Shown here piece by piece: positions 14,785 to 39,099 of a stretch of DNA of 64,000 nt. Position numbers and translations under genes: made by a program. Where the stretch lies: positions 10,472 through 74,471 of the forward strand of contig JAXJWX010000091.1 of NCBI GenBank assembly GCA_036307765.1. Reading direction: 5' to 3'. Numbering within the stretch: position 1 is the stretch's first letter; the number at the start of each line of letters is the position of its first letter. The DNA is from Paludibacteraceae bacterium (GTDB lineage Bacteria; Bacteroidota; Bacteroidia; Bacteroidales; Paludibacteraceae). The notes under the pieces are model-generated. The model was not told where the DNA came from. It searched no databases and saw nothing but the letters and a program-made list of their open reading frames with translations.

Positions 14785-14792
14785 CAAAAGAA

Positions 14793-16351: not shown

Positions 16352-16354
16352 TAA

Positions 16355-17185: not shown

Positions 17186-17187
17186 AA

Positions 17188-18060: not shown

Positions 18061-18081
18061 TGTATTTTTTTATTTGGTCCG

Positions 18082-18089
18082 CAAAGATA
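18082..18089 (-). promoter_or_regulatory. -7 box (TATCTTTG on the minus strand) for the R-M operon
   Basis: caaagata lies 22 nt upstream of ATG 18060. Confidence 0.5.
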
Positions 18090-18209
18090 GTGATTTTTTT
18101 TGAGTTGAGCAAATAATAATAATTTTTTTTTATTTTTCACACAAATAAACCACCCTTCAAAATAGGGTGGTCTATTTTTACGAAGATAGTTATATTGTAT
18201 TGATGGTGG

Positions 18210-18992: not shown

Positions 18993-19294
18993 CTCAAAAT
19001 AATAATTTTTATTATATAATGTATTTATGGAGATTGTTGGCGGATCTCCCCATTATTTTTTTTCTTTTTTGTTATATTTATATTAGACTTGCATTTCTTG
19101 CCAGTTATACATAAATAAAATAGAAGATGAATTATAATATGGTAATAATATAAAGAATGGTAATACGGTTTTCTGTTGGTTGTTCTCCACAATGGGCTGA
19201 TAGAAAATAAATATATGAGAGATAGAAAAGCACTTGAAATCTGAAAGCGGAGTGGAGACCGCAAGTAGGATTTCAAGTGTTATTTTTATTTTAT

Positions 19295-22141
19295 ATGGAG
19301 AAGAACAATTATATTAATAGTACGAATGAAGAAGCGTTATTCACACCTGATTACTTCATCAACGCAGACGATAAGTTTTATTTGTCTGACATCATCACAG
19401 ATAAGTTGTATAATAAGTGGTTCGCACGAACGAAACCAGCAAAGATATTCGTGCTGAACAAAGGACGATGTGGCAACGGAGGAACGATGGGATTTATCAA
19501 TTACGCGAGAGAGCAGTGTAAAGGATTGATTGTAAGTGTCCCTAACAGAAGTATCGTTATATCAAAGGAGAAATATGACGAGTGTTGTTGTGTGTATGGT
19601 GGTGCAGAGAATATTGATAGAAACAAGAATATTCGTATATGCACTTGGGATAAGACTGATGAAGTTGAAGGATATAACCAGTTCGGATTTGAGAATATAG
19701 ATGTAACTGATTGGGATGTCGATCCGCGTATCTGGTCGGGTTCATTGTTGGTGGTTGATGAATATCACAAGTTGATAGACGACAGCAACTACCGTGAAAT
19801 ATGTTATAAAATAACTGAAAGAATACTTACTACTGACAGCAATGTTGTGCTTATGAGTGCAACACCTAACTATGAGTTCATTGAGTTCTTGCGTCTATAT
19901 AGTGGTAAGGATGTTGAGACATATAGTGTGCAGTATGACGATGAGGACAAGGATAAGGTCTTTGCTCCTATACAGTGGATGGACAGACCGAAGGGTGTGA
20001 GGTTGTATGATATTGTCAGTGAGGTTATAGAGGCTTCACGAAGAAGGAAGAATGAGTATGAGCAATGCCCATCAAAGGTTGGATTGGCTGATAGTCAAGT
20101 TTGTATCTTTTTTAGTTCTGTGCGAGAAATATCCAATCTTGTTAATGATATGCCAGACACATCTGATGTTGAGGTGTTGTGTGCAAAAACTGAACTGAAT
20201 GAATTGAGGGTTCCTTGTTATAGTAAGAAGTTTAACCCAGAGAAGCAGATACATTTTTTGACGAGTGCTTATTTCGTCGGTATGGATATATACTTACCGA
20301 AAGATGAAAGGGGTAATAAGCGTCGCGTTGATAAGTTTATATTCATTGGTGGTAACAGTCAATACCAATTGTCATACTCCAATAAGGAGATAAAGCAAGG
20401 GTTAGGTCGTGGTCGTGATGGATATAATGGTTCGTTCATCATACCAAATGGTCGTATTATCAATGGAGATATGTATGAGGATTTCGCTGCTAAAAGAGTA
20501 ACGAGTAAAGGTGATGTCAATACACACAAGGATTTCGCTGGTGATGAGGAGTATGTTCAGCGTCATCTTGAAGCAATTATCAAGTGCAATCTTGATAATC
20601 TATACTATACTAAAATCATTGAAAGTATGGAAGGATGGAATGATGGAGCGTCGTTCAAGAATATGATGAGTGTATATCCAGAATATACTGTGAATATAAA
20701 ACAGATGCCCAAACCAAAGATATACAAGAGAAAGAGAGATATTAGTTTCAATGAGTATAAGAAGAAGCGTCTTGCTGGTGAGCAGGTCGTTTATAAGTAT
20801 AGTGGTATATGTGAGAAGTATATTGAGAAGTATGGATTAGATAAGTTTGAAACTGCAACTCGTAGTGAAATTGAGCGAAAGGTCAAGTTGGATTTTGTTG
20901 TCGGAGATGTAGATATAGAGACTATGACAAGCGAACAGAAGTTTGAGTTCTTGCTGGGTGATGGCTATTATAGTGGTAGTTATCTGATGGGCGTGTTGGA
21001 TTATCTTGGTGAGAAATGTGAATATGAAGAATTGGAGGAGAAAATGAATGGTGTGTTTGGTTGTTATTGTATATATCAGAAGGGTAATAGAAGGAAGGGA
21101 AGTTGTGTGTTTCTTTGTCTCTTGACGGGTAGTTTGTGGCAAGAGCAGAAAAACTGGGACACGCCTTATATATATAAGAACGCGTCCCAGAAAAACGGCT
21201 ACCACCACATAAATGCATTAAAAATATCAAGGAGAACATCAAAGTTCGGTTACAAGACCGAAGCAATAACAGAGTATCTTGACAGCAGCAAGTTCTACTC
21301 TATAATTAACGGAGGAGACTATAATTTTCAAGCGGAGTTATACACCAAGATATTCAAGGATGTATCAGTGATACCTTCCTTAAAGCGAGATGAACAATAT
21401 AAGAAGATATTAGATAAATGTAAGAATAACCAGACCCTGATCTGCGAGTTCTATAAAGACACCTCATCATCTACTCGTTACCCTCACAAGGCAGAGGAGA
21501 TGGAGAAGATAGATTGCTTAATTGTTGATATTGATGACAGCATTTCGTTTAATGAGTTCAATGAGAAATATTCACATCTTACTTGGACAGCATACCCAAC
21601 AATATCTAACTATGACGCTGACAATTGGCGTAAGTTCAGAGTTGTGTTTCCATTAGCACAAACACTACTTATCCCTAATGATAATCTTAATGTGCTTAAA
21701 CTATTGAGAAGGATGGTATGTAAGTATGAGGATAGATGTCATAATTTAGGCAGTAGCATCAATGCAGAGCAGTGGGAGATGAGGCGTTCTAACGAAGGTA
21801 AGTTGGTTGATATTAGTCAAGGAACGGTAACTTATCTTCATTCTCTATTGCAAAATATGGTAACTGTTTCTGGTAAGTTTAGGAAATCTAAGAAGGATAA
21901 TGTTGTTGTGGATATACCAGAGATAATAAACGCAGCGATTGAAAGAGCAGTGCAACTTATTCAGGCGGCGAAAGAAGGTAGCAGACACTCTACTATATTT
22001 GGACAGATGTGGAAGTTGATGTCCATATACCATATCAGTGATGAGCAGATTAATTATATCCGTGAGCGGATCACCGACTATGAAAAGGTCAAAGAGTTCA
22101 ATGAACAGGTGAAGTATATATATAAAAGATATATGCGATAG
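19295..22141 (+). CDS. SF2 helicase fused to a primase/replicase-like C-terminal region
   Basis: Helicase-like motifs are GRCGNGGT (I-like), VVDEYH (II), MSATPN (III) and QGLGRGRD (VI). The C-terminal DCLIVDIDD is a DxD motif resembling archaeo-eukaryotic primase-type domains. The start is taken at the first ATG (19295) rather than the GTG of the track. Confidence 0.55.
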   Translation: MEKNNYINSTNEEALFTPDYFINADDKFYLSDIITDKLYNKWFARTKPAKIFVLNKGRCGNGGTMGFINYAREQCKGLIVSVPNRSIVISKEKYDECCCVYGGAENIDRNKNIRICTWDKTDEVEGYNQFGFENIDVTDWDVDPRIWSGSLLVVDEYHKLIDDSNYREICYKITERILTTDSNVVLMSATPNYEFIEFLRLYSGKDVETYSVQYDDEDKDKVFAPIQWMDRPKGVRLYDIVSEVIEASRRRKNEYEQCPSKVGLADSQVCIFFSSVREISNLVNDMPDTSDVEVLCAKTELNELRVPCYSKKFNPEKQIHFLTSAYFVGMDIYLPKDERGNKRRVDKFIFIGGNSQYQLSYSNKEIKQGLGRGRDGYNGSFIIPNGRIINGDMYEDFAAKRVTSKGDVNTHKDFAGDEEYVQRHLEAIIKCNLDNLYYTKIIESMEGWNDGASFKNMMSVYPEYTVNIKQMPKPKIYKRKRDISFNEYKKKRLAGEQVVYKYSGICEKYIEKYGLDKFETATRSEIERKVKLDFVVGDVDIETMTSEQKFEFLLGDGYYSGSYLMGVLDYLGEKCEYEELEEKMNGVFGCYCIYQKGNRRKGSCVFLCLLTGSLWQEQKNWDTPYIYKNASQKNGYHHINALKISRRTSKFGYKTEAITEYLDSSKFYSIINGGDYNFQAELYTKIFKDVSVIPSLKRDEQYKKILDKCKNNQTLICEFYKDTSSSTRYPHKAEEMEKIDCLIVDIDDSISFNEFNEKYSHLTWTAYPTISNYDADNWRKFRVVFPLAQTLLIPNDNLNVLKLLRRMVCKYEDRCHNLGSSINAEQWEMRRSNEGKLVDISQGTVTYLHSLLQNMVTVSGKFRKSKKDNVVVDIPEIINAAIERAVQLIQAAKEGSRHSTIFGQMWKLMSIYHISDEQINYIRERITDYEKVKEFNEQVKYIYKRYMR

Positions 22142-22238
22142 CACGGCATTGCGAAAAAAATAATTTTTTTTGAAATCAAACTCTTTTTGCTGAAATCGTT
22201 ATCACCCCATAAATACTTTATACAAAAGATTTATTATT

Positions 22239-22820
22239 ATGAAGAAATGTTTTCAAGTATTGTTTAATCGTCCATTAGATTTTGAGGATGAGGTTATTTA
22301 TGGTTTTCGTGTTCCCTGTGATGGTAGAGCAAAGTTAATTATTGAGTATGCAGTAGAAGAGTTGATTGGCAAGTGGTGCTTTTTGCAAAAGCACGGAGGC
22401 AATTTAGAAACTAAATCAATCTGGATGGATAAGAATGGTCGCCTCTACCGTTCAGGTAAATCAACATTGTTGTATTCATACACCGCTGCACTTGCCACCT
22501 ATACATATTTTCGGATTGACGAGTATTGGGTTGATGACGACTATGATTTGGACGATGCCAAAATAACCGAACCAACGGATTATTTCAATCTTCGCTGCGA
22601 GATGGAGGACGAAGACTATAAAACGGGGTATAATGGGTGGCTGCAAGTGTATCAAAAATTGCTTAAAAAGTTCCACAGACTACTTGATGTTGATGATAAG
22701 GGTCAGGACAAACTTGACTATGACGAGCAAGAAAGGACTAATAGGATGTCCAAAATCAGCAGAAATGAGGTGTTTGGTGTAGAAAAAGAGGGTTATTTGA
22801 ACGAGGGTATTTGTAAATAA
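22239..22820 (+). CDS. Hypothetical protein
   Basis: A 193-aa ORF downstream of the helicase gene, with no recognisable motif. Confidence 0.45.
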   Translation: MKKCFQVLFNRPLDFEDEVIYGFRVPCDGRAKLIIEYAVEELIGKWCFLQKHGGNLETKSIWMDKNGRLYRSGKSTLLYSYTAALATYTYFRIDEYWVDDDYDLDDAKITEPTDYFNLRCEMEDEDYKTGYNGWLQVYQKLLKKFHRLLDVDDKGQDKLDYDEQERTNRMSKISRNEVFGVEKEGYLNEGICK

Positions 22821-23234
22821 CTGATAATCAGTAGTATAATTTTGCAACTCGGTAAAATGAGACTTTTAGGGTCAGGAGGTATGTTTTATAACATCCTCCT
22901 ATTTTTCTTCTCTATATAACCTAACTATTTGAGGACCAATCAATTAAGGACCAATTTTTTGTTGATTTTCCTTGGTCGGTTCATTTTTTTTTTGTAATTT
23001 TGCAAAAAATAATTATTTTTTGCAACAACGATGCATAATACCCTTTTATTTACATATTGCATAACTGATGGTGAAATAGATAATATGAGTGAAAAACAAA
23101 AGTCAATAATATTAAGGATACTATCGGAGAGAGACCACATCAAAAATTAGACCAAATAACTCTTTGTTTGAACTGAACGCAAAAAACACTTGGTTCAAAT
23201 GACCTTATGAGACTTAAATGAACCCAACATTAAA

Positions 23235-23912
23235 ATGAACCCATATATGACTATGACAACAGACATCAGAGCGGCAATATATGCTCGCGTATCCTCAACA
23301 GGGGAAAGACAATCAACAGAAAGACAAGTGATAGACCTAACAGATTACGCCAACAAGAACACGATGACGATATGTAGAACTTTTGAAGAGCATATATCGG
23401 GAGCGAAGAAGAACCACGAGCGACCAGTTCTCCAAGAGTGTTTGACATATTGTATAGAGGAGAAGGTTGATGTGTTATTGCTCTCGGAGTTGAGCCGCCT
23501 TGGTAGAAATGTAGATGAAGTCCTTGCTAATATCCGCTTCGCAAAGGAGAACCGCTTGAATGTCTATTTTCAAAAAGAAGGTATATCCATCTACGGAACT
23601 GATGGAAAAGAAAATCCTTACCTTACCATTATGATTGCAGTCCTCGGAACCTGCGCCCAAATGGAGCGTGAGAACATACACTATCGCTTGCAGTCAGGCA
23701 GAAAGGTTTATGTTGATAAGAACCTTGCTGCTACTGGTAAGTCAGGTCTTGGGAGAAAGGAAGGTTATCGCAAGCCAGTTGAAACAAAGAAAGAAGAATA
23801 TAAGGAGGCATTAAAACTTTTGCGCGCTGGATATCCAATACGAAAGGTTGCTAAACTAACATCTGTTTCTGAAAGCACCATTAAACGATTAAAGAAGGAG
23901 TTCGCAATATGA
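23235..23912 (+). CDS. Serine recombinase (resolvase/invertase family)
   Basis: 225 aa. AAIYARVSSTGERQSTERQ holds the catalytic Ser region, and there is a C-terminal HTH (IRKVAKLTSVSESTIKRL). Confidence 0.8.
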   Translation: MNPYMTMTTDIRAAIYARVSSTGERQSTERQVIDLTDYANKNTMTICRTFEEHISGAKKNHERPVLQECLTYCIEEKVDVLLLSELSRLGRNVDEVLANIRFAKENRLNVYFQKEGISIYGTDGKENPYLTIMIAVLGTCAQMERENIHYRLQSGRKVYVDKNLAATGKSGLGRKEGYRKPVETKKEEYKEALKLLRAGYPIRKVAKLTSVSESTIKRLKKEFAI

Positions 23913-24239
23913 TAAACATAGAACAAATCAAATGGATATATCAGCACTTCGGTGTTGTGATGGCGCTAAGGTCCGCAGGGTATGATCTACTCGCGGACCT
24001 TGCTTTTATATGTTATTGCATAACGCTGCCTATTCAGTTCTTGTGGATACTTTTGAAAAAGATATTTGGGATATAACGAGTGAAAAACGACATTTTTTTT
24101 GAAAAAAAGTGCATTTTTTCGTCATTTTTTTCGGAGGTTTGTTATTTTTATTGTGTAGGGTTAAGGAATTGGTGGTTGAGATGATAAGCCCAATTCTCAA
24201 AGCCTGCTCATTGTTTTAGAAATTAAAATTATTTTAAAT

Positions 24240-24530
24240 ATGTTTAGTAAAGTAAATCTTGATGAATGCAATCTGTCCATCACGGTGAAGATGGAAGATT
24301 TGAAAGCCCTATTTTTCAAATGGGAAGATGAATGGGCGAAGAAAGTGGCGGAAGCCAATAAATTAAAGGAACAGCAGGAATGGTATAACAGCCGCGAGAC
24401 TGCTAATATTTTTAGGAAGAGTATTTCAACTATCAACAGATGGAAACACTCTGGATTTTTAACAGCCAAAACGATTGGTGGGATGGATTATTATAATAAG
24501 AAGGAAATTGAATTAAAAATGAAAGCGTAG
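24240..24530 (+). CDS. Excisionase-like/MerR-type helix-turn-helix DNA-binding protein
   Basis: 96 aa. YNSRETANIFRKSISTINRWKHSG resembles Bacteroidales excisionase-family HTH proteins. Its stop abuts the integrase start. Confidence 0.55.
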   Translation: MFSKVNLDECNLSITVKMEDLKALFFKWEDEWAKKVAEANKLKEQQEWYNSRETANIFRKSISTINRWKHSGFLTAKTIGGMDYYNKKEIELKMKA

Positions 24531-24531
24531 A

Positions 24532-25866
24532 ATGACTATTAATTTTGAATTATCAAAAAAAGAGGACGCGAACAAGATGCGTCAAATACTGGTAAGAATA
24601 TCGGTATCAAGAACCTTCCGAGTAGGGAGCAAGACTGGATTGTATGTGTCAATGAAAGATTGGGACGAAAAAAACAATTCTGTGAGAAAGATTAGTAAGA
24701 TTGAGCGTGTGGAAAAGCAGCAAGAACTCGCTACACTTCGTGATGAACTTGCAAAACTTGAAAGTCATATTGAACAAGCGATTATTAGCGAACGAGAATT
24801 GGAGAAGATGACGGATAAAAAGGATAGGCAGGAGTGGATAGATTTAGTGATTGAGAGTTTTTACGACCCCAGTGTAAAACTCACAAGAATGAAAAACCTG
24901 ACATTTGACGAGTTTGCAAAGATTTATGTGGAGGTTAGAAGTAAGGAAGAACATTGGAAGCCTGCAAAGAACAACCACATCAACAGAAAGAAACTCTGGG
25001 AACATCCGTCATTTGACAAATTAAGTGCAGTGCAGAGCCAAGTGCATAAGATGAACCCGAAATTACTGATGGACACGATTACAGGGGTGACATTGGACGA
25101 GTATCAACACTTCCTCGTAAGTCAAGGATATAACAACAAAACGATTGAGAACCATATTTCATATTTCAAACAGATTTTGCGATGGGCGTATGAGAAGGGA
25201 TATTTGAAATATGGCAGAGATGTGATGGAACACAAGGTTAAGGACTTAAAGATAGCAAAGCCCACACCATTCAATTATCTAACTTGGGATGAGTTTCTCC
25301 AATTTTACAATTGTGAGTTTGATGAATTGGAAAAAGACTTGGAGTTGGCAAGGGATAGATTTTGTTTCTGCTGCGCGACCTCGTTGCGACATAGTGATTT
25401 GGCGTTGTTAAAGAAATGCCATTTTGATAATCCCGATAACCCAACATCATTTAGTATCGTTAGTAAGAAGACGGATGATGCTCTCACCATCCCCCTAAAT
25501 GAATACAGCAGAAGTCTCTATAAAAAGTATAAGGATAAGGATAGTGATAATGGACTGCTTTTTCCAAAGAAGTCAAATCAGAAGATGAATAAGTGCTTGA
25601 AGAAAATTGCATTGAGGTTGGGGATAACGAGGGAGGTTAGCAAAACAGAGTATTCAGGAGCGGTCAGAAGCGACACCACAACAAGGATATGTGATATTAT
25701 TGCTACACACGCAGCCCGTAGAACTTTTGTAGTGCATTGTGCAGAAGAAGGTTGGTCGGAAGAACTGATTAGAACATACACTGGACACGAGGATTTTAGG
25801 GCAATGAGACCATATTTTGCAATCGGAGATAAGAAAAGGCAAATGTATATGGAAAAACATTTTTAG
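24532..25866 (+). CDS. Tyrosine-type site-specific integrase
   Basis: 444 aa with an N-terminal arm-binding-like region, a HAARRTF (HxxR) motif and TGHEDFRAMRPY containing the catalytic Tyr. Confidence 0.85.
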   Translation: MTINFELSKKEDANKMRQILVRISVSRTFRVGSKTGLYVSMKDWDEKNNSVRKISKIERVEKQQELATLRDELAKLESHIEQAIISERELEKMTDKKDRQEWIDLVIESFYDPSVKLTRMKNLTFDEFAKIYVEVRSKEEHWKPAKNNHINRKKLWEHPSFDKLSAVQSQVHKMNPKLLMDTITGVTLDEYQHFLVSQGYNNKTIENHISYFKQILRWAYEKGYLKYGRDVMEHKVKDLKIAKPTPFNYLTWDEFLQFYNCEFDELEKDLELARDRFCFCCATSLRHSDLALLKKCHFDNPDNPTSFSIVSKKTDDALTIPLNEYSRSLYKKYKDKDSDNGLLFPKKSNQKMNKCLKKIALRLGITREVSKTEYSGAVRSDTTTRICDIIATHAARRTFVVHCAEEGWSEELIRTYTGHEDFRAMRPYFAIGDKKRQMYMEKHF

Positions 25867-25869
25867 ATT

Positions 25870-25901
25870 AAAGGGAACTACAAAGGTGGTTCCCTTTTTT
25901 T
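25870..25901 (+). terminator. Rho-independent terminator after the integrase gene
   Basis: gggaac (25873-25878) pairs with gttccc (25889-25894), followed by a T-run. Confidence 0.6.
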
Positions 25902-26071
25902 GGTGCATTTTTGCCATAAAAAAGTTGCACCGATATGGGTCCGATAGCATAATGCGAGTAGATTGATAAGGTAAATAGCAGGTAATTTTCCTAATATCTC
26001 ATAGCGTATCTGTATGGTTCTCAGTTAGAAACATATAAAATCAGGTTAAGAATATTGGAAAATTATGTGTT

Positions 26072-26415
26072 AATCCCTCTCTCTCCGCCAAAAAGAAAGG
26101 AGTTCCAATAAGGAGCTCCTTTTCTTTTTTGTGAGAAGAACAGGGCCTTCTCACACCCTCGGACGGGGGCTCTTATCTCGACCGAACTGGTCTCGAACGA
26201 TACGCGCAAAAAATTGCGCTAGCGAATCCCTCTCTCTCCGCCAAAAAGAAAGGAGTTCCAAAAGGAGCTCCTTTTCTTTTTTGTGAGAAGAACAGGGCCT
26301 TCTCACACCCACGGACGGGGGCTCTTATCTCGACCGAATTGGTCTCGAACGATACGCGCAAAAAATTGCGCTAACGAATCCCTCTCTCTTCGCTAAAAAG
26401 AAAGGAGTTCCAATT
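26072..26415. repeat. ~152-bp tandem repeat (2 full copies plus 1 partial), each starting with a copy of the tRNA-Ser 3' end
   Basis: tRNA-end copies lie at 26072-26088, 26223-26241 and 26375-26393 (1 mismatch). Each is followed by the hairpin aaaggagttcc...ggagctccttt. Confidence 0.9.
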
Positions 26416-26848
26416 AGCAAAGAAAGACGATTCTTATAATTGCGTTCGTTTTCGTGTAATATATCATCATTCGCCTGATCAATAATGGATTGTATACAAA
26501 CACCATCATTCTCCGTCATCGAAAATGCTACATTCAGTACTTTTTGCATACAATAGGTATATTTCTTTGAATTATGCAAATAAAATTATTCTATTAGCAT
26601 AATTTTAGTAGAATAATAAATGCGAGAATAGAATGAGTGGTGGAAAAAAGACAAAAAAGCAGTTCCGATTTCTAAGCATTTATATCCGATTTTTAAGGCA
26701 GAAGTACAACAAGTAATCCGCTGGGCAATTGACGCTTGCGAAGTTTTATGTCCCATAATATATGCAACATTTGGTGGAAAAGCAATTTGTGTAGTAATTT
26801 TGCAGTCGCAAACGCAATTAAAAACCTCCTGCTCCCGCTGGTCGCGAA

Positions 26849-31270: not shown

Positions 31271-31858
31271 TTATTCTGATGCATATGGCAAATCAGCTAT
31301 CCCCTTTATATATTTTGCGGGTATGTAATCTGTTTGCCAAACATCGTTGGTGATTTTGTAGAAAACATATCCATCTGCTGCCATTGCTGCACTGTTGATT
31401 TCGAGTACTTCTGGCATATTCTGGTATCCTCCTAAGAAGTAAGCCTTTCCATAGATTGGAGATAAATGAAGTCTTGTGTGGTTCATCGGTTTTATACCTT
31501 CTTTAAAAATGAGGGGCAAACTGTTCTCTACTATTCCATAATATAGCACATTAGGAGGGGGCATTGGAATTGCGTCACTCTCTATTTTGATAGAGTGTCC
31601 ATATAAGGCGCGCACCTTCGTCTTGTCATCCGAGAAAATAAATCGCCCGTCGTCATCAAACAAGACAAGTGCGCTGATGACACATTCTTTATAGCCAGAT
31701 TCTTTACATAGTACATCAACTGACACCCAACCATATTTATCTGGTAAATTGGAATGTTGAAGCAGATAGGCAAGGCGTTTAGATTGAGCAGGAAATTCTG
31801 GAGTGAAAGCATTAGGTGGTAATTCAGACTCAGGTGAAACAATATTTGGAGGTAACAT
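31271..31858 (-). CDS. KptA/Tpt1-family RNA 2'-phosphotransferase-like protein
   Basis: 195 aa. It aligns with E. coli KptA in four blocks: SKRLAYLLQH, GRFIFS..VRALYGHS, PPNVLYYG and TRLHLS. The first catalytic Arg (LRH) is Gln here. Confidence 0.7.
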   Translation of the reverse strand: MLPPNIVSPESELPPNAFTPEFPAQSKRLAYLLQHSNLPDKYGWVSVDVLCKESGYKECVISALVLFDDDGRFIFSDDKTKVRALYGHSIKIESDAIPMPPPNVLYYGIVENSLPLIFKEGIKPMNHTRLHLSPIYGKAYFLGGYQNMPEVLEINSAAMAADGYVFYKITNDVWQTDYIPAKYIKGIADLPYASE

Positions 31859-31930: not shown

Positions 31931-32896
31931 CTATAAATTAATTATGAGTATAATTATTCCAACTATAATTGCTAAAATTACTAATACCCCAAAACATCCA
32001 ATATCATTATCGTTGTCATTATTCTGAGTAGGTGGAGGTGAAGGAGGAAGTGGAGTCGATGTGGGATGGCTTTTGACTGGGATTGGAGTATCCCTTTTTT
32101 GAATCATTGACTTTACTTTAGGTGTTAAATTAGGATTTCTCTTCAAAGCCATATAGACAGATATCGCAGAGTCATGAAAACATCTTAACATTACCTCTTC
32201 ACGATATGTTTCTGCAGCTACTTTTACACGAACTTTACATGCAACTTTCTTTTTTTGCAACATATCATCTTCAAAGGGCTTTAACAAATCTTCTATTTTT
32301 TGACGTTCTTCTGCAATTTTCCTCTGTCTTTCTCTTTCTGCTGCTATTCTCTTCTGTGCGGTTTCTTGCGCTGCACGAATTCGTTCCTCTTCGGCTTTTC
32401 TTTTGGCTTCTTGTTCTGCGGGTATGGTTACTGTTTCAAAATAGTGTGATTGAGATTTTGAAATAAATTGCGCATTTCGATAGTACGCGGTATTATCTGA
32501 GAATGGAGGCGTAGATGGGAATTTGAACCATTGGTTCTGTATTAACTGACGCTTTAGATCCAAGTGTTGACGCTTTAGAAGTTCAACATCCTCGTAATTA
32601 TATGGTTTGTCATATAAGTTGCTATCATCTTCATAATCAGACCATGCACGCTGACATTTGCCTTTTTCTAATTTTATGGCATGTTCTAATTGTTCTAACT
32701 TAACTTGATCTGCTTTTCTTTTTTGGTCAAAGGCATCCTTATCACGTAAAACTTGTGCCCGTTGTTGGTGCCCTTGTACAGCTTTCATTTCCGCCAAGTT
32801 CAATTCATCTCTCCAGCAGTCTTTACACAATATTCTCCCATCTGACATTCGATAATACTCATCGAATCTTTGGTGGCATCTTTGACATTGAAGCAT
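31931..32896 (-). CDS. Tail-anchored coiled-coil protein with an N-terminal zinc ribbon
   Basis: 321 aa with CQRC...CKDC at the N-terminus, a long K/E/R/Q-rich helix, a Pro-rich linker, and the C-terminal TM helix GCFGVLVILAIIVGIIILII. Confidence 0.6.
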   Translation of the reverse strand: MLQCQRCHQRFDEYYRMSDGRILCKDCWRDELNLAEMKAVQGHQQRAQVLRDKDAFDQKRKADQVKLEQLEHAIKLEKGKCQRAWSDYEDDSNLYDKPYNYEDVELLKRQHLDLKRQLIQNQWFKFPSTPPFSDNTAYYRNAQFISKSQSHYFETVTIPAEQEAKRKAEEERIRAAQETAQKRIAAERERQRKIAEERQKIEDLLKPFEDDMLQKKKVACKVRVKVAAETYREEVMLRCFHDSAISVYMALKRNPNLTPKVKSMIQKRDTPIPVKSHPTSTPLPPSPPPTQNNDNDNDIGCFGVLVILAIIVGIIILIINL

Positions 32897-32956: not shown

Positions 32957-33661
32957 TTAAAGCAAGAAAAATTGAATATACATTAAAATAGCCATTATAA
33001 TTCCTAAAACAATTAAAAACCTTATTTCTTTTTTTGATTGTTTTTCTATCTCTTCCATGTCCTTTTGCACTTGCTTTAAGTATTCCACATGTTCTCTATC
33101 TTTTCTTTCTTGTTCTTCTTTCTCTCTAGATTCTTCTGCCTTTTTTCTTTGTCTTTCATGTTCTGCAATTTTTCTCTGTCTTTCTAGCTCTTCCGCTATT
33201 CTCTTCTGCTCGGCTTCTTGCGCTGCACGACGGCGTTCTTCTTCAGCTTTTCTTTGTGCTTCTTGTTTTTTTTGTTTCCATTTTAAAAATTCTGGATCTG
33301 TTGCTTTTTTGAATTCTAGCCATTCTTGATATTCTGGATCAAGAACTTGTCTTGTAGGCTGTGGAAATGGAGGACGAAAAGGTTGTTATTTATCTCTTCT
33401 ATTTTTTTCTTCAGTAGCTTTCCTTAGTGCTTCAAGTTCGTCGGCAGCTCGTTTCTGTTCATCAGCAGCACGTTTTTGCTCACGAAAGGTATTCGCTTGA
33501 TCATCTAGTGATTGTAGGTGGTTATAATATGCGTCCGCCAAATCCTCTTCTTCTCTCCACTTGAATTTCTTTCGACATGAATAGTCATCTCTACAAATTT
33601 CAACATATTCATATTGACGACTCCATGTTCCCTCTATAAATTCTTTTCTAGCCATATTCAA
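32957..33661 (-). pseudogene. Paralog of the coiled-coil tail-anchored gene, interrupted by one in-frame TAA (33386-33388)
   Basis: The 91-aa ORF (33386-33661) continues in the same frame for another 142 codons with no ATG. That extension ends in a K/E-rich helix and the TM tail FLIVLGIIMAILMYIQFFLL. The DNA is similar to 32330-32410. Confidence 0.6.
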
Positions 33662-33783
33662 GTTAATCTTAAAATTATCTTAAATTATTAGGATATCCCA
33701 TCCCTGAGTATCCATTATTTCAAAAAACACTACCTATCATAAATGGAATCGTACTGATTGTCAATAACAGATGTGCTTTTTGA

Positions 33784-34524
33784 TTACTCATTTATACTAA
33801 AAAATGTATTTATTAATATTTTTCTTTTGTCAATATCGTCATTATATATCCATTCGTAGTTTTTAATCGCATCAGAGATACAAAATATAAAAGCAACATC
33901 AACTCCACGATAATTTGCTATTGAGGATAAAGCCGAGGACTCCATATCAATGCACTCGATTCCTTGACATTCTAAATGATGTATTAACATTGGAGTTTCC
34001 ATAAACAACGCCTCTGTAGTATAGCAATTTACCATATCTATTTTATAATTTCTTAATTTATTTTTTACATAATAATTCAAAGTCATTGATGTGGCTACAT
34101 TCAGTATACATTTTCCTATGTAAAACTGAGAAACACCTTCTCCAATAAAAGTATTTTTAAGCAATACAATGTCCCCTATGGCATAGCGACCAAGACTACA
34201 TGCATAACCATAAAATACAAACTCCGTAAATCCCAAATAAATCAAACAATCAAAATCTATCGCTGCTAATGCTGCTCCATTTCTTATAATAGCCAAAAAT
34301 ACTGGATTATTCTTATTATCTAATAAAAGAGAGAATATTTTAAACGATTTAACATCAACGACCAATGTTATATCATAGTCATTAAAATACTTTAAATAAC
34401 TACTATTAAAAAACACATGACATAAACCTGAAAATTGTTTGATGTTCTTTTCAAAACCACGACCTCTAAGATAATTTGTGGGGCATATGATGGGATTGTT
34501 ATTGCTTATTTGTTTTGAATACAT
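33784..34524 (-). CDS. Nucleoside phosphorylase superfamily protein, MTA/SAH (5'-dAdo) nucleosidase-like
   Basis: 246 aa. The DMESSAL and CISDA motifs correspond to the MtnN EMEAAA and ISDxAD blocks. It overlaps the upstream rSAM gene by 19 nt. Confidence 0.6.
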   Translation of the reverse strand: MYSKQISNNNPIICPTNYLRGRGFEKNIKQFSGLCHVFFNSSYLKYFNDYDITLVVDVKSFKIFSLLLDNKNNPVFLAIIRNGAALAAIDFDCLIYLGFTEFVFYGYACSLGRYAIGDIVLLKNTFIGEGVSQFYIGKCILNVATSMTLNYYVKNKLRNYKIDMVNCYTTEALFMETPMLIHHLECQGIECIDMESSALSSIANYRGVDVAFIFCISDAIKNYEWIYNDDIDKRKILINTFFSINE

Positions 34525-35708
34525 AATGGAGATATTTTATCTTTTGTTTGATCAACAATGGCGGCACACCAAAATTGGCACTTATCACACCGAGAACAAT
34601 TTGATTTTATTGCTTTTAAAGATTGTACAATCTTTGTATAAGTTAGACTATCTAGCAGTTCTCGTATGGAGTGATTGGTTAGATTTCCTATGTGCCACTT
34701 CTCTTGATACAATAGGGGACAAGGGGTAACCATTAATTCACTATTGATATATAATTGTCCAATTGCTGCATTACAATTAACTCCTCTAATATTAGCACGT
34801 GTGGTAATGTTCCTTTTCAATATGCTTTCATTAATTTTCTTTTGCACCAATCTTAGTTTATCATGAGTGAATTGTATATGCGAATAAGGTACAACAGGTG
34901 ATACTTCGAATTTAAAGTGCAAATCTTCACATACTATTTTATGTACTTTATCAATATCCTTGTAATTGATATCGTCAATTGTCATTGATACTTGCACATC
35001 AGCCCCTTTTAGCAATTCCAAAGCTTTTAAAGTTCGTCTAAAAGTTCCACAACCTCTTCTATAATCATGAGACTCTTCAATGCCATCTAAACTAATTCTA
35101 TAACAATCTACATATCTTTTTATTTCGGTAATATTAGTTATGTTTATTAATGTAGCATTAGTAAATAATTTCACATAAAACCCATATAATTTGGCTAATT
35201 TTATAATCTCAATAAAATTATTATGTACTATGGGCTCTCCCCCACTTATTTCTAATGATAAGATTCCTATATTGGCTAAATCTTTCAATATTACGTCATA
35301 TTTTTCGAACGGCACAAATTTCGGCTTAATATTATTGAGGTAACAATGCTGGCAATGTAAATTACAAGATGATGTAATAGCGAAATGAACAGATAATAAT
35401 CTAGTGTCTGTATTGTTAATTGAAGGAACAAATGAATGATCTTGGTTGATTATTGACATATTTTTCATAGTTGCAATAATATCAATAACATCTTGTTCTA
35501 TTTCTCTAGGATCAGTTTCATAAAATGTCTCTTGGAATTCTTTTATTATGTCAATAACTTTTGTCTTTCCATCAAGTTTTGACCAAACCTCAAAAAATGT
35601 ATAATTTCCCTCATACACTTCGCCATTATAATCAAGGACAATCAAAGTTCCGTTCGAATTATAATTGCTAATACGGCTCCTTGAATAATATTCGTTTAAC
35701 ATTAGCAC
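34506..35708 (-). CDS. Radical SAM peptide maturase with an N-terminal PqqD-like RRE and a C-terminal SPASM-like domain
   Basis: 400 aa. The N-terminus FFEVWSKLDGKTKVIDIIKEFQETF...VIDIIATMKNMSII is PqqD-like. CNLHCQHC is a CX3CX2C motif and SGGEP is present. C-terminal Cys clusters are CNAAIG..TPCP..CSRCDKCQFWC. Confidence 0.8.
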   Translation of the reverse strand: MLMLNEYYSRSRISNYNSNGTLIVLDYNGEVYEGNYTFFEVWSKLDGKTKVIDIIKEFQETFYETDPREIEQDVIDIIATMKNMSIINQDHSFVPSINNTDTRLLSVHFAITSSCNLHCQHCYLNNIKPKFVPFEKYDVILKDLANIGILSLEISGGEPIVHNNFIEIIKLAKLYGFYVKLFTNATLINITNITEIKRYVDCYRISLDGIEESHDYRRGCGTFRRTLKALELLKGADVQVSMTIDDINYKDIDKVHKIVCEDLHFKFEVSPVVPYSHIQFTHDKLRLVQKKINESILKRNITTRANIRGVNCNAAIGQLYINSELMVTPCPLLYQEKWHIGNLTNHSIRELLDSLTYTKIVQSLKAIKSNCSRCDKCQFWCAAIVDQTKDKISPLCIQNK

Positions 35709-35764
35709 TTTTAATATTGGTTACAAAATCAAATTCTCAAAAACTTTATAGAGTGTAATCATTG

Positions 35765-36586
35765 CTATATCTTAACCCATTCGTTTATTTCTTTTGTTGA
35801 AATATGCCAATCTATGATTTCGCTATCTTGTGGATTACAATATTTGCAAAAGGGGTGTGGTCTATTTAGTTTCTTTAATATATTTCCCATATCCTCTTCT
35901 TGATATATGTCATTATAATCTTTGTCTGTATATTCTAGTGGTAAATTGAAATGTTTGGCCAAATGTATACTATGTGCCGTAATATCACAAGTATATAATT
36001 TTCCTTCAAATAAATTTACACTTGCATTTGCATGAGTACAATGATACCAACTTCTAATACACATTTGCTTTCCACTTATATCCATTTTAAAATTTCGAAA
36101 TTTTTTTATACCAGTATCTATATCTATTTTAACAGTGACATTATTTTTTGTTGCTAATTTATAAATTAAAGTATAATCAAGATTTATCGGATAGTAACTT
36201 ACGATTATATCAATATGAAATTTGGCACATACTTCCCAAAATTTTTCATTCATGTCTGGCAACAATAAGCCATTAGTATGAATTGCGATTTCGTATTGAG
36301 GGAAGTTTAATCTTGCGATTTCCATAAATTCAATAATCTGAGGATGTAACAAAGGCTCGCCCCCCATTAATCTTATACGTCTAATATTCCCTTTGCTTAA
36401 AAAAGCTAATCTCTTAATGTCATTTTGAAAAATTTCTTTAGACATAAAATATTTTTCTGCCAATGGCGCAAAATGACAACAACATGCACAATTTAAATTA
36501 CAATGATTCGTTAGATGTATCTCCAAATAATCTAACGCTACTTTATTTCTATTCTTTTCCAATAAAATATCTAAGATCATGCGCAA
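35765..36586 (-). CDS. Radical SAM protein (small, MoaA/NifB/PqqE-like core)
   Basis: 273 aa with HLTNHCNLNCACC (CX3CX2C), MGGEPLLHP, and the C-terminal pair CKYC. Confidence 0.75.
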   Translation of the reverse strand: MRMILDILLEKNRNKVALDYLEIHLTNHCNLNCACCCHFAPLAEKYFMSKEIFQNDIKRLAFLSKGNIRRIRLMGGEPLLHPQIIEFMEIARLNFPQYEIAIHTNGLLLPDMNEKFWEVCAKFHIDIIVSYYPINLDYTLIYKLATKNNVTVKIDIDTGIKKFRNFKMDISGKQMCIRSWYHCTHANASVNLFEGKLYTCDITAHSIHLAKHFNLPLEYTDKDYNDIYQEEDMGNILKKLNRPHPFCKYCNPQDSEIIDWHISTKEINEWVKI

Positions 36587-36604
36587 AATTATTTTAAAAT
36601 CAAA

Positions 36605-37804
36605 TCAACAGTTCGAGTTTTGTCGGGTATAGTTAAATATTACATGCTGCCATTGATTAGTCTCTGATTTACTAGCTTCAATCATAGTATACCCATTCTC
36701 ACAAAGTTTGTTTATAACATAATTTATTTTTTTCTGAACACTATCAATTGACTTATATAATTGACCTATTGGGCTGTGCGGATGTAATGTACAGGGGAAT
36801 AAATTAATTTGTTGGAAACGAAGTGAGATTAAGTGTTTTAAAGTTTCATCTATATCGTTCTGTTTTTCTGTTGGATACCCAATTATTATATGTGTCGTTA
36901 AATACAAATTATTGTTATACTCTTTTATTTTTTTTATAAATTCAATAAACTCCACAACATTTAAATTTCGATTCATATCTCGAAGAATGTTGCTGCTAAA
37001 TGATTGTATTGGAATTGTTATTTTAAATAGTAAATTTGAATGATTTTTTATAAAATTATAAAATTCATTTCTATAACCTAATATCCACTTTGGATTAATT
37101 TCGAAATCAACACCCTTAATTTGAGTGTACGAACATATTTGTTCTAACAACTTAACAATGGTTAATTGACAGTCTATTCCATAGCCACCTCCGTCATCAG
37201 CGACTAATCTTATGTATGAAAAGTTTTGTTTTAAGGCTTTCTTTAGTTCTTCTATTATTGTACTAATAGCTTTGCTTTTATGGTGACCTATAACTTTTTT
37301 TATGGCACAATATGAACAATTACCATAACAACCCTTTGATATTCTTATTAAAAAGATATCACTCTTAAATATAGTATCATAATAAATATCATTTCCATCT
37401 TGTATATATTTAAGTTGCAGTTTGCAGGGGGGAAAATACATTTCTATGTCTTGCAATGCCTCATTGTTAATCACAACTACATTTTTGCTTAAGTTCAAGT
37501 TGTGCATTCCTATAATAGGAAAACAACCAAACACGAAAACATAATTGTAGTTTTCTTGAAAAAAATATAATTTTCGACAAGAGTCCCAGGACATTTCTTC
37601 AGAAAAAGAACAAGTAAAAAAGAATATTATATTGGCATCATGGGGGTTGTCAACAATTGTATATCCATTTTTTTGTAAATATTTTTTCACCCAAAAAGAA
37701 TCTAGCTCCCTTCTTTTACATGCATTACAACATATATAAATTCGTGCAGGATCCATAAGAAAATAATAGTTAGATTCTTTTTTATTAATAGGAATTATAT
37801 CCAT
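36605..37804 (-). CDS. Radical SAM enzyme with a MiaB/RimO-type (UPF0004) N-terminal methylthiotransferase domain
   Basis: 399 aa. The N-terminal three-Cys pattern IYICCNAC...ANIIFFFTCSF...VFGCFP aligns with MiaB GCQMN...NTC...GC. The core motif is GCYGNCSYC. Confidence 0.7.
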   Translation of the reverse strand: MDIIPINKKESNYYFLMDPARIYICCNACKRRELDSFWVKKYLQKNGYTIVDNPHDANIIFFFTCSFSEEMSWDSCRKLYFFQENYNYVFVFGCFPIIGMHNLNLSKNVVVINNEALQDIEMYFPPCKLQLKYIQDGNDIYYDTIFKSDIFLIRISKGCYGNCSYCAIKKVIGHHKSKAISTIIEELKKALKQNFSYIRLVADDGGGYGIDCQLTIVKLLEQICSYTQIKGVDFEINPKWILGYRNEFYNFIKNHSNLLFKITIPIQSFSSNILRDMNRNLNVVEFIEFIKKIKEYNNNLYLTTHIIIGYPTEKQNDIDETLKHLISLRFQQINLFPCTLHPHSPIGQLYKSIDSVQKKINYVINKLCENGYTMIEASKSETNQWQHVIFNYTRQNSNC

Positions 37805-37853
37805 GAAAAGTAAACAATGATTTGCTATATTCTTATCTCATTTTATGGTAAAC

Positions 37854-37915
37854 TAACATGAGTTCGATATAAAGACCACCTATTTCAGCTGCTGTTTATA
37901 TTCGAACTCATGTTA
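37854..37915 (-). promoter_or_regulatory. 20-bp inverted repeat between the peptide gene and the first rSAM gene (attenuator or processing hairpin)
   Basis: taacatgagttcgatataaa (37854-37873) pairs with tttatattcgaactcatgtta (37895-37915), with one bulge. Confidence 0.5.
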
Positions 37916-37939
37916 ATTAAGTATTACGCATAGACTCAC

Positions 37940-38014
37940 TTATTGACAACACATCATAGATTCTAAAGTTTGTTGTGCAGATTTTTTAATTTCTGGTTTT
38001 TTCCATGTTTTCAT
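37940..38014 (-). CDS. 24-aa candidate precursor peptide MKTWKKPEIKKSAQQTLESMMCCQ
   Basis: My own translation of ATG 38012-38014 to TAA 37940-37942, preceded by aaaggaaatttgt. It is below the ORF-track size cutoff. It has a WKKP leader like PqqA and lies 135 nt upstream of the rSAM genes on the same strand. Confidence 0.55.
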   Translation of the reverse strand: MKTWKKPEIKKSAQQTLESMMCCQ

Positions 38015-38100
38015 ACAAATTTCCTTTCGTTGAAAATAATACAGTTACTAATTTAGATTGCGCCAGTATATTGAAAAGAGCAACTTATAAAAATAGAATG

Positions 38101-38235
38101 TTATCTATTTTTCTCCGCTTGCTCGGCTTCATATTGACATTTAGGAGAACAATAGGTTCTTCGACTTCCTAACCAAATTCTACCTTGTCCTTTTCCAATT
38201 ACAGGATCTCCACACCATGCGCATGTGGCAACCAT
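38101..38235 (-). CDS. 44-aa zinc-ribbon mini-protein (CAWC...CSPKC)
   Basis: My own translation: MVATCAWCGDPVIGKGQGRIWLGSRRTYCSPKCQYEAEQAEKNR. It is below the ORF-track cutoff. Confidence 0.35.
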   Translation of the reverse strand: MVATCAWCGDPVIGKGQGRIWLGSRRTYCSPKCQYEAEQAEKNR

Positions 38236-38386
38236 TCCAGCGTCATTTAATGGCTCTTTTACAAAAAACTCATAATCAAAATTTTAAATATTACGTCGGT
38301 TCTTATACTTTTATTTTATGTTGGCATGTAATCTGAACCGATTTAAGATCACATGCTGTTATACTTACATTTTACTCACCAAAATA

Positions 38387-38647
38387 CTATTCTTTATCAG
38401 GCCAATAGGTTTGCTGAACAATATCAGTTTTTCCACTTGAATCTGATTTAACGGTTCTTCCGTCATCTTCATTAATGATGTAATGTATGTGACTTCCCCC
38501 ATCTCTTTTATCTTCATCTTGTCTCGTAGAGCAATAATCGTTACCACTTTTGAAAGATTGATAACTGGAATCTTCCCACTCTCTTCTATCTTTTGAAGCT
38601 TCGGTTGGAGTAGCGTAATCTTGAATATGATTATGTTTATTACTCAT
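38387..38647 (-). CDS. Hypothetical small hydrophilic protein
   Basis: An 86-aa ORF rich in D/E/K/S, with no recognisable motif. Confidence 0.35.
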   Translation of the reverse strand: MSNKHNHIQDYATPTEASKDRREWEDSSYQSFKSGNDYCSTRQDEDKRDGGSHIHYIINEDDGRTVKSDSSGKTDIVQQTYWPDKE

Positions 38648-38748
38648 AACTAATACTGCCAGTTATATACCGTCGGCTCGTCGGTTTTTAAGATAAACAT
38701 CAATAAAAGTGTACTACTCACACATTGCAGTGTGACATTATTCAGAAA

Positions 38749-38859
38749 TTATCTTTGACGTTCACGCACATTCTGACAGATAGGACAAAGTCCCATTCCA
38801 TTTTGAAGGATTTCGAGTGGCCAAGATTTGCCACAACCTTTGCATGTTCCCATTTCCAT
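38749..38859 (-). CDS. 36-aa zinc-ribbon mini-protein (CKGC...CPIC)
   Basis: My own translation: MEMGTCKGCGKSWPLEILQNGMGLCPICQNVRERQR. Confidence 0.35.
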   Translation of the reverse strand: MEMGTCKGCGKSWPLEILQNGMGLCPICQNVRERQR

Positions 38860-39099
38860 AATTATTAGATTTTATTTCCTACTCTTACAGCTTCGTAGGT
38901 CCTGCTTGGATACAACACAAAAAAGCGGGACTGCACTATTACTGCTCCGCCATCCGAGGTTCTAGCATGACCTTCTATTCCAAAGAAAATTTATGCTAGA
39001 TTAAACGGATGACCAAAAGTAAAGAGCGTTTAAACGCCTTTTATGTCTGTGTCCCTCACCTAAAAATGTTCAAACATCCCCAGCGTGAGATTCACCGTG

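Follow-up and report, generated by a model that had tools for sequence, protein, structure and literature searches.

The window, a stretch of 64,000 nucleotides of DNA from a Paludibacteraceae bacterium (Bacteroidales, of the gut type), contains a segment at 33784–38014 in which an open reading frame (ORF) of 24 codons is followed by genes for three radical S-adenosylmethionine (SAM) enzymes and a nucleosidase-like protein. The arrangement raises the question of whether the short ORF encodes the substrate of the enzymes and, if so, what is made from it. We consider it likely that the segment is a self-contained mobile cassette for a peptide that is made by ribosomes and modified after translation (RiPP), in which the three radical SAM enzymes would mature the 24-residue product of the short gene. 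A candidate undescribed pathway of this type had been proposed in a preceding reading made without database searches (the sequence-only reading). The proposal stands: the precursor is conserved and a RiPP recognition element (RRE) is present. No published description of the cassette, that is, of its peptide motif or of a methylthiotransferase (MTTase), methylthiolation or a nucleosidase in a RiPP pathway, was found in the literature searched, and no curated model describing it was found.

The five genes are co-oriented on the minus strand, and the junctions between them, from the peptide gene onward, are 135, 18, 56 and −19 nt. The short and overlapping junctions and the RRE, SPASM, UPF0004 and PNP_UDP_1 domains described in the sequence-only reading are borne out by the ORF list of the window and by Pfam scores, which exceed the gathering cut-offs for all domains of the cassette. 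The features are as follows.

37940–38014, minus strand: predicted precursor-peptide gene of 24 codons, MKTWKKPEIKKSAQQTLESMMCCQ, with W4-x-K6-P7 in the putative leader and the core E18-S-M-M-C22-x-Q24
37851–37918, minus strand: intergenic stem-loop separating the peptide gene from the MTTase gene, an inverted repeat with 17-nt arms
36605–37804, minus strand: paralog of MiaB/RimO-type radical SAM MTTases without a TRAM domain, 399 residues; UPF0004 and Radical_SAM domains
35765–36586, minus strand: twitch-domain radical SAM enzyme, 273 residues from a TTG start; Radical_SAM and Fer4_12 domains
34506–35708, minus strand: predicted RRE(PqqD)–radical SAM–SPASM peptide maturase, 400 residues from a GTG start; PqqD, Radical_SAM and SPASM domains
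33784–34524, minus strand: NP-I (PNP_UDP_1) nucleosidase-like protein, 246 residues; the first 19 nt of the gene overlap the SPASM gene
33140–38906, minus strand: block common to the window and loci L001 and L002, 5.77 kb with 98.2% identity (blastn)

The five genes are one conserved co-oriented unit. Their order (peptide, MTTase, twitch enzyme, RRE–SPASM enzyme, NP-I protein) is the same in all close loci of sufficient length. From locus to locus, the four enzymes show similar degrees of identity to their counterparts in the window, and L007 ranks as the most divergent locus, or close to it, in all four cases, which fits co-inheritance as a unit. No family of flanking genes is common to more than 3 of 11 loci. 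As the sequence-only reading had noted for the window, genes for a protease, an exporter or transporter, or immunity are absent from the unit when the flanks of the 11 loci are compared.

The 24-codon gene and its downstream hairpin

Contigs for comparison were retrieved through the approximately 14 relatives of the MTTase-type enzyme, and 12 distinct loci were compared for an ORF upstream. The sequence-only reading had made its proposal depend on a conserved small ORF in homologous clusters. An ORF of exactly 24 codons precedes the enzymes in 12 of the 12 loci, 66–207 nt 5′ of the first enzyme gene, and it is present even in L176, the MTTase of which is 36% identical. The enzymes of the 12 loci are 35–62% identical, and the peptides are conserved far better. 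Residues M1, W4, K6, P7, E18, M20, C22 and Q24 are invariant, and I9, K11, S12, Q15, S/A19 and M21 are nearly so. Position 23 is variable and is occupied by C, S, N, M, T or I. The conserved core of the peptide is E-[S/A]-M-[M/V]-C-x-Q. A product built from a C-terminal Cys-Cys-Gln, as suggested from the window copy, is ruled out because just Cys22 and Gln24 are invariant in this part of the peptide.

The codons of the invariant residues vary synonymously, with four codons used for P7 and two each for E18, C22 and Q24. The median dN/dS of the peptide ORF is approximately 0.2, and the conservation of amino acids runs to the last residue before the stop codon. The synonymous variation and the low dN/dS indicate that purifying selection acts on the 24-codon ORF as a coding sequence; it is a real conserved gene, well beyond chance. 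Its interpretation as a regulatory leader or a chance ORF was rejected because conservation at the amino-acid level extends up to the stop codon. Ten of the peptides were compared with the precursor models of Pfam and NCBIfam, including those of PqqA, and no match was found at E ≤ 10. Upstream of remote MTTase paralogs, no recognizable similar peptide was found.

Directly 3′ of the peptide stop codon, 11 of the 12 loci have a strong stem-loop of 9–17 bp, often followed by a run of T, and the sequences of the stem-loops are unrelated. In the window, the arms of the hairpin at 37851–37867 and 37902–37918 are 94% complementary and enclose a 34-nt loop, and the intergenic region between the peptide and MTTase genes has a minimum free energy of −34.2 kcal/mol (z = −3.8). 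A structure that is kept at this position without its sequence has the layout of a leaky terminator or stabilizer, such as many RiPP operons have between the genes for precursor and maturase. The hairpin is probably a leaky terminator or an RNA-stability element. The −7 motif of Bacteroidetes promoters, TAnnTTTG, occurs within 300 nt upstream of the peptide gene in 8 of the 12 loci, against approximately 0.2 occurrences expected per 300 nt; there is no exact match upstream of the peptide gene of the window. Scans for sigma-70 promoters and for the intrinsic-terminator consensus, both of them unsuited to Bacteroidetes, gave no excess over shuffled sequence.

Four enzymes without close characterized relatives

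The 399-residue protein contains a UPF0004 domain (PF00919, 35.4 bits; cut-off 27) and a Radical_SAM domain. The cysteines C29, C65 and C94 of the former and C159, C163 and C166 of the latter are invariant in 13 sequences. Its best score, 173.3 bits, is to the general MiaB/RimO model TIGR00089 (cut-off 251), and it stays under the cut-offs of the equivalog models for RimO (130.6 bits; 357), MtaB (119.4; 357) and MiaB (113.5; 355). The closest solved structure is RimO (126 bits), with MiaB at 105 bits. The alignment with RimO stops at residue 350 of 438, before the TRAM domain, and Pfam gives no match to TRAM or TRAM_2 in the 399-residue protein at E ≤ 0.1. In place of TRAM, the C-terminus has a conserved tail of approximately 45 residues, in which Y372 and W385 are invariant. 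Relatives with at least 35% identity number approximately 14 among 5.8 billion clustered proteins, and a look-up of the exact sequence gave no record. By these comparisons, the protein is assigned to a separate, tiny, TRAM-less clade of MTTase-type enzymes. It shares with RimO, MiaB and MtaB the N-terminal UPF0004 domain with three invariant cysteines and the CX3CX2C radical SAM core; however, it has no TRAM domain, it scores under the family cut-off, and its gene sits in a mobile peptide-maturation operon instead of being a housekeeping gene.

RimO methylthiolates the β-carbon of Asp89 in ribosomal protein S12. To our knowledge, radical SAM MTTases are known only from tRNA (MiaB and MtaB) and from one ribosomal protein (RimO). 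If the assignment is correct, a peptide-dedicated MTTase would add C-methylthiolation to the tailoring reactions of RiPPs, and the 24-residue peptide would provide a minimal, easily synthesized substrate for an enzyme class whose mechanism is debated.

A related arrangement occurs in remote genomes. In the archaeal-type locus L096 (7733–10742), a TRAM-less MTTase paralog with 30% identity is followed by a PqqD-like/radical SAM/SPASM gene, and an ORF of 31 codons with a GTG start, MKKNEIHETLVSETGYKTWIYDVWSSKCVPV, lies approximately 150 nt upstream; the locus may encode an analogous peptide pathway. Locus L011 (8933–14763), from a metagenome-assembled genome of Nanoarchaeota, has genes for a SPASM protein, an MTTase-like protein, a B12-binding radical SAM protein, a plain radical SAM protein and a second SPASM protein in a row, and no precursor peptide was identified at this locus of five radical SAM genes. 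Given these loci, the pairing of a TRAM-less MTTase with a radical SAM–SPASM enzyme, with or without an RRE, may be a broader and unrecognized theme.

The 400-residue enzyme had been predicted to carry a PqqD-like RRE at its N-terminus, which agrees with the match to PqqD (PF05402, 31.0 bits; cut-off 23.4) at residues 24–83 and with an alignment to CteB that covers the full length of the enzyme, the RRE of CteB included. The PqqD domain recurs in the homologs. The gene calls of L001 use an ATG two codons downstream of the GTG start and give a protein of 398 residues. The cysteines C115, C119 and C122 of the CX3CX2C motif are invariant. The SPASM domain (PF13186, 33 bits) contains the cysteines C312, C330, C371, C374, C377, C381 and C396, which are present in nine of the nine sequences that reach the C-terminus. 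The closest solved structures are SkfB (85 bits), anSME (68 bits) and CteB (59 bits), and PqqE scores 34 bits. The best NCBIfam matches lie under their cut-offs: StsB at 101.7 bits (625) and AlbA at 79.9 bits (850), with the YhhB/PapB-type matches likewise. The scores against MftC (TIGR03962) and PqqE are 70.6 bits (cut-off 265) and 48 bits (cut-off 381).

The twitch-domain enzyme starts at a TTG codon in the ORF list, and the start used by NCBI, an ATG two codons downstream that gives 271 residues, is probably correct. The protein is 100% identical to MEE0922504.1 from a Paludibacteraceae metagenome-assembled genome. The names given by NCBI to two proteins of the cassette are merely ‘radical SAM protein’ and ‘hypothetical protein’, the latter being the 246-residue protein (MEE0922502.1). 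The invariant cysteines of the twitch enzyme are C29, C33 and C36, together with C183, C200, C247 and C250, and the last four are invariant in 35 sequences, the wider family of the enzyme included. The AlphaFold 2 model has a pLDDT of 94. Its top Foldseek match is the dehydrogenase SpeY (TM-score 0.76–0.78 over 267–277 columns), followed by BtrN, anSME and EpeE. The likeness to SpeY, BtrN and anSME extends to the compact size of approximately 270 residues, the single auxiliary cluster site with four cysteines and the match of the fold over the full length; however, the sequence identity is merely about 20%. SpeY, BtrN and anSME oxidize alcohols of sugars or cyclitols, or Cys or Ser of sulfatases, whereas the partner genes in the cassette point to a peptide or a peptide-linked substrate. 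Unlike the other parts of the cassette, the twitch enzyme has more than 580 relatives outside it, at 37–47% identity.

The 246-residue protein had been described as MtnN-like in the sequence-only reading. The NP-I fold holds (PNP_UDP_1, PF01048, 45 bits), but identity with MtnN was rejected: the MtnN models score 15.0 bits (PRK05584; cut-off 169) and 15.2 bits (PRK07164; cut-off 161), and no MtnN structure is among the top 50 Foldseek matches. The AlphaFold 2 model (pLDDT 85) has TM-scores of 0.70–0.78 to uridine phosphorylase, the archaeal MTAP of Sulfolobus and DeoD, and the best sequence match is the MTA phosphorylase of S. solfataricus (1jds, 56 bits). D193-M194-E195 and S217-D218 are invariant across the relatives; we take the Met-Glu of NP-I enzymes to bind ribose and the Ser-Asp to be catalytic. 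In the hidden Markov model (HMM) alignment, the Arg of the ‘FIRYG’ segment of 1jds, which presumably clamps phosphate, aligns to a hydrophobic position, F104 in the protein of the window. A k-mer search gave 10 relatives, several of them on contigs equal in length to known contigs of the cassette. An exhaustive HMM search of 1.84 billion representatives gave one full-length member at 296 bits, followed by matches of 123 bits or less, and the closest outgroups are themselves uncharacterized. The protein forms an isolated, cassette-specific clade of the NP-I family. It keeps the fold, the Met-Glu and the Ser-Asp of MTAP, uridine phosphorylase, DeoD, AMP nucleosidase, MtnN, MqnB and HpnG; however, it belongs to a clade restricted to the cassette and reaches no curated family cut-off. 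A cassette-specific nucleosidase would imply that mobile radical SAM pathways carry their own detoxification of 5′-deoxyadenosine or that the pathway includes adenosyl chemistry.

The ligands of the Fe–S clusters of the three radical SAM enzymes are all conserved, as are, in the 246-residue protein, the residues aligned to those for ribose binding and catalysis in NP-I enzymes. By its gene content, the cassette is predicted to function as an RRE-dependent radical SAM RiPP pathway does, and it has those defining features of such pathways that can be tested from sequence: a precursor, an RRE, the CX3CX2C motif and the SPASM cysteines. A short Cys-containing precursor beside a radical SAM–SPASM maturase with an N-terminal PqqD-type RRE is also found in QhpD and in the ranthipeptide and sactipeptide systems (CteB/SCIFF, PapB/freyrasin, SkfB and AlbA). 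By contrast, the core of the cassette peptide has a single invariant Cys, the precursor is 24 residues long and belongs to no known precursor family, the maturase has two more radical SAM enzymes and a nucleosidase as obligatory partners, and neither a protease nor an ABC exporter accompanies it. The best matches of the maturase are thioether synthases, all of them far under the family cut-offs, and the cassette probably belongs to none of the named sactipeptide and ranthipeptide families. Genome mining regularly yields new radical SAM RiPP families; what distinguishes the cassette among them is the set of enzymes that it combines, the presence of a dedicated nucleosidase, the minimal size of its substrate and the fact that it is mobile.

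The analogy with pyrroloquinoline quinone (PQQ) drawn in the sequence-only reading holds only at the level of motifs: like the PQQ pathway, the cassette has a peptide of approximately 24 residues, a PqqD-type RRE and a radical SAM–SPASM enzyme. We take PqqA to have the pattern W-x-x-P … E-x3-Y, with a distance from W to E of 13 there and 14 here. The peptides give no match to the PqqA models, and the SPASM enzyme is nearer to SkfB and CteB than to PqqE. Furthermore, position 22 of the peptide is Cys and never Tyr, the RRE is fused to the enzyme, and PqqB, PqqC and PqqF are missing. Membership of the PQQ pathway was rejected because the peptides fail the PqqA models, PqqB and PqqC are absent and the PqqE score is low. 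Membership of the mycofactocin pathway was rejected on the MftC score and because the peptide ends in C-x-Q and not in Val-Tyr.

A proposed maturation pathway and its alternatives

We infer a pathway with thioether and methylthiolation chemistry. Our confidence in its steps falls from the binding of the leader to the RRE through the SPASM-catalysed link, the methylthio group and the twitch step to the nucleosidase. A promoter upstream of the peptide gene would drive the operon, and the hairpin, acting as a leaky terminator or stabilizer, would result in more mRNA of the precursor than of the enzymes. The W-x-K-P leader of the peptide would dock on the RRE of the SPASM enzyme, which would take a hydrogen from a side chain and couple the resulting carbon to the thiolate of C22. 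As the sole invariant Cys, C22 is the candidate donor of the thioether, and the likeliest partner is Glu18, four residues upstream. Thioethers between Cys and the side chains of Glu or Asp are formed by the radical SAM–SPASM enzymes QhpD and PapB, which tolerate differences in spacing (PMC8326336, PMC10739248). The outcome of this step in the cassette would be a small ranthipeptide-like thioether ring, E-S-M-M-C, with a mass change of −2 Da. At a core carbon that is not activated, the TRAM-less RimO/MiaB-type enzyme would install a methylthio group (+46 Da), the reaction that RimO performs on Asp89 of S12. The SpeY/BtrN-like twitch enzyme would contribute a third radical reaction; two-electron oxidation and epimerization are the most likely candidates. 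The NP-I nucleosidase, presumably coupled in translation to the SPASM gene, would remove at least three molecules of 5′-deoxyadenosine and one molecule of S-adenosylhomocysteine per peptide. Both by-products inhibit radical SAM enzymes, 5′-deoxyadenosine being a known inhibitor of them, and a role of the protein in clearing by-products is plausible.

The action of three radical SAM architectures (MTTase, twitch and SPASM) on a core of seven residues would probably give a structurally unusual product. Since the unit includes no protease or exporter, the product may act inside the cell or rely on functions of the host, and the abundance of conflict and defence genes in the surrounding islands suggests a competitive or protective function. 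The recruitment of a RimO/MiaB-type MTTase to a ribosomal peptide could define a new RiPP class with C–H methylthiolation as its hallmark, combined with a thioether from a single Cys and a third radical modification, perhaps with a nucleosidase that acts on an adenosylated intermediate; we put this forward as a serious possibility that falls somewhat short of being probable. The system, 4.2 kb long with a 24-residue substrate, is well suited to heterologous reconstitution.

Several observations weigh against the proposed pathway or parts of it. None of the proteins of the cassette reaches a family-specific cut-off of NCBIfam (June 2026 release); all four enzymes are far under every one of them, and their predicted catalytic roles derive from remote homology. 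In the distant locus L176, the RRE–radical SAM gene comes right after the MTTase gene, with no twitch enzyme between them, and the contig then ends. The twitch step may thus be dispensable, and the small radical SAM enzyme may be a later addition or be encoded elsewhere. The genes of the wider twitch family adjoin genes for glycosyltransferases and carrier proteins, and the best structural match, SpeY, acts on a sugar, which suggests that the substrate of the twitch enzyme may not be an amino-acid side chain. SPASM enzymes similar to that of the cassette form C–C, C–S and C–O bonds, epimerize and oxidize, so that a thioether is just the most likely outcome, and Glu18 as its acceptor is a guess from invariance. 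A general salvage enzyme would not be expected to be restricted to the cassette or to lack the phosphate-binding Arg, as the NP-I protein apparently does; these features hint at a role in the pathway itself.

Such a role would be explained if one of the radical SAM enzymes adenosylated the peptide, the NP-I protein stripped the adenine and the twitch enzyme oxidized the remaining 5-deoxyribosyl appendage, which is C-glycoside-like. MqnE and MqnB of the futalosine pathway and HpnH and HpnG in the formation of the hopanoid side chain provide a precedent for this logic. No close relative of the NP-I protein is found outside the cassette, and the protein's divergence is comparable to that of the other cassette enzymes; its residues for handling base and ribose are kept, and the position of the presumed phosphate-clamping Arg is hydrophobic. 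The sugar dehydrogenase as best fold match and the glycosyltransferase neighbours of the wider twitch family fit the same sequence of reactions, and radical SAM–SPASM enzymes are known to form 5′-deoxyadenosyl–peptide adducts on unsaturated side chains (PMC10739248). However, the cassette includes no enzyme to make the unsaturated acceptor that is normally needed for adenosyl addition. HpnH and MqnE are absent from the NCBIfam matches listed for the three radical SAM proteins, for two of which the list comprises the best 25. At E ≤ 0.1, the NP-I protein gives no match to HpnG or MqnB, and clearance of by-products is a simpler account of the NP-I gene. We regard the adenosylation route, the main alternative for the nucleosidase step, as unlikely. 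The sequence-only reading had offered a small molecule or cofactor as another product; in the manner of PQQ or mycofactocin, Glu18, Cys22 and Gln24 would be crosslinked, tailored and excised by a protease of the host. The length of the peptide, its W-x-x-P N-terminus and the E-x3-C near its C-terminus resemble PqqA, the RRE is of the PqqD type, the unit has no exporter, protease or immunity gene, and the C-terminal residue is invariant, as in MftA. Such a product is nonetheless quite improbable and has no contextual support: the peptides match no precursor model, the SPASM enzyme scores far below the PqqE and MftC cut-offs, and no gene of the PqqB, PqqC, MftD or MftE type and no conserved client oxidoreductase is found among the neighbours. 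The cassette is moreover rare, sporadic and carried on mobile islands, which is unexpected for the cofactor of core enzymes.

The island setting could also be read as a sign of an anti-phage or abortive-infection system, in which the modified peptide would be an antiviral, or a sensor or activator, and the NP-I protein a nucleotide-depleting effector comparable to the ATP nucleosidases with a PNP domain in CBASS (Cap17) and Detocs. The cassette travels on integrative and conjugative elements, its gene content is that of an intracellular system, and the islands contain Hachiman (L007), a DpnII restriction–modification system (in the composite island of the window) and genes for Tpt1/KptA, Metallophos, PP2C, a kinase and an AAA ATPase. 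However, such a neighbourhood is weak evidence, and an architecture with precursor peptide, RRE and leaky terminator belongs to a biosynthetic operon and not to a sensor–effector pair. The assignment to a known defence system was rejected because PADLOC-DB 2.0 matches neither the MTTase nor the NP-I protein and gives for the other two radical SAM proteins solely the generic similarity of the core to pVip; we consider a defence system very improbable. Even less credence is due to the view that RNA or ribosomal proteins are the substrates of the enzymes and that the small ORF is a mere regulatory leader or a chance ORF. All characterized members of the MiaB/RimO family modify tRNA or S12, and the model of that family gives the top score. 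Against this view, the substrate-binding TRAM domain is absent, the cassette includes an RRE for peptide recognition, and the ORF is conserved as a protein sequence to its last residue, with synonymous changes, in all of the loci. The cassette is also accessory and mobile, and its family is missing from the GTDB species representatives among the matches listed. The maturation of the 24-residue peptide by the three radical SAM enzymes remains the reading that we prefer.

The islands that carry the cassette

The cassette is horizontally acquired and rides integrative and conjugative islands of Bacteroidales, in agreement with the origin suggested in the sequence-only reading from its base composition. 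The G + C content (GC) is 28.9% in the cassette segment, 43.9% in the remainder of the window and 48.4% in the core genes at 42–64 kb; it is 28–32% throughout 33.5–38 kb. The GC of the cassette is lower than that of the flanks in every locus compared. In the window, the cassette is part of a composite low-GC island between a tRNA-Ser gene (14700–14785) and the core genes, which resume at approximately 41.9 kb. The block shared with L001 and L002 comprises the cassette, approximately 0.6 kb downstream and approximately 0.9 kb upstream, and the surrounding islands are otherwise different. No terminal direct or inverted repeats were found at the ends of the block. The nearly identical block in different islands, together with the rarity of the cassette, indicates that the cassette is a rare accessory module and was exchanged recently.

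The distribution of the cassette is consistent with this. In the GTDB species representatives, the matches listed for the MTTase family are only relatives at 23–32% identity, and the cassette family is probably absent from them. The cassette was not found in viral contigs or in the plasmids of PLSDB, where the matches are true RimO and other distant MTTase relatives (22–26% identity). Elsewhere, it lies beside an integrase of the Bacteroidetes type and a Hachiman system (HamA and a helicase) in L007 and beside the tra genes of a conjugative transposon in L174. Other neighbours of the cassette include genes for kinase, PP2C, AAA, NUDIX and ADP-ribosyl-glycohydrolase proteins. The cassette moves among Bacteroidales within islands that are rich in conflict and defence genes, and its product may therefore matter for competition or phage resistance in the gut or rumen.

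The island of the window includes an integrative element at 14700–26420, inserted at the tRNA-Ser gene. The last 17 nt of the tRNA (14769–14785) recur at 26072, 26225 and 26377, in 152-nt tandem repeats located just after genes for a resolvase (23235–23912) and an integrase (24532–25866), and the triple copy of the attachment site suggests repeated or tandem integration. The element carries a complete DpnII-type restriction–modification system at 15161–18060, with an N6_N4 methylase, a DpnII endonuclease and a D12-class adenine methylase. The cassette sits in the adjoining segment, together with genes for DUF3987, Metallophos and Tpt1/KptA proteins, a kinase-like ORF and a DUF234 ATPase.

Within the shared block, upstream of the cassette, there are ORFs of 44 residues (38101–38235), with a zinc-ribbon-like CxxC…CxxxC pattern, and of 86 residues (38387–38647). 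Their homologs are present in L001 and L002, and none were detected upstream of the cassette in other lineages. Downstream of the cassette, ORFs of 321 residues (31931–32896) and 91 residues (33386–33661) encode Lys/Glu-rich, coiled-coil-like proteins without a Pfam match. The regions of these ORFs share a 107-nt repeat (32309–32415 and 33161–33267, 85% identical), and the ORFs resemble one of 345 residues downstream of the cassette in L175 (5726–6763).

A gene for an RNA 2′-phosphotransferase of the Tpt1/KptA family is found near the cassette in three lineages: at 31271–31858 in the window, at 6977–7534 in L090, where it is directly 5′ of the peptide gene, and at 1755–2981 in L008. Metallophos, PP2C or kinase genes are often located alongside it. 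This neighbourhood may reflect a shared type of island or a functional link. In L170 (16699–17998), an unrelated radical SAM–SPASM gene encoding 367 residues is followed by an ORF of 51 residues approximately 2.7 kb downstream of the cassette, beside an M42 peptidase gene, and may represent a distinct RiPP locus within that island. In L003 (17517–19952), an unusually large radical SAM protein of 811 residues is encoded downstream of the cassette, and ORFs that follow the cassette in L170 are related to it.

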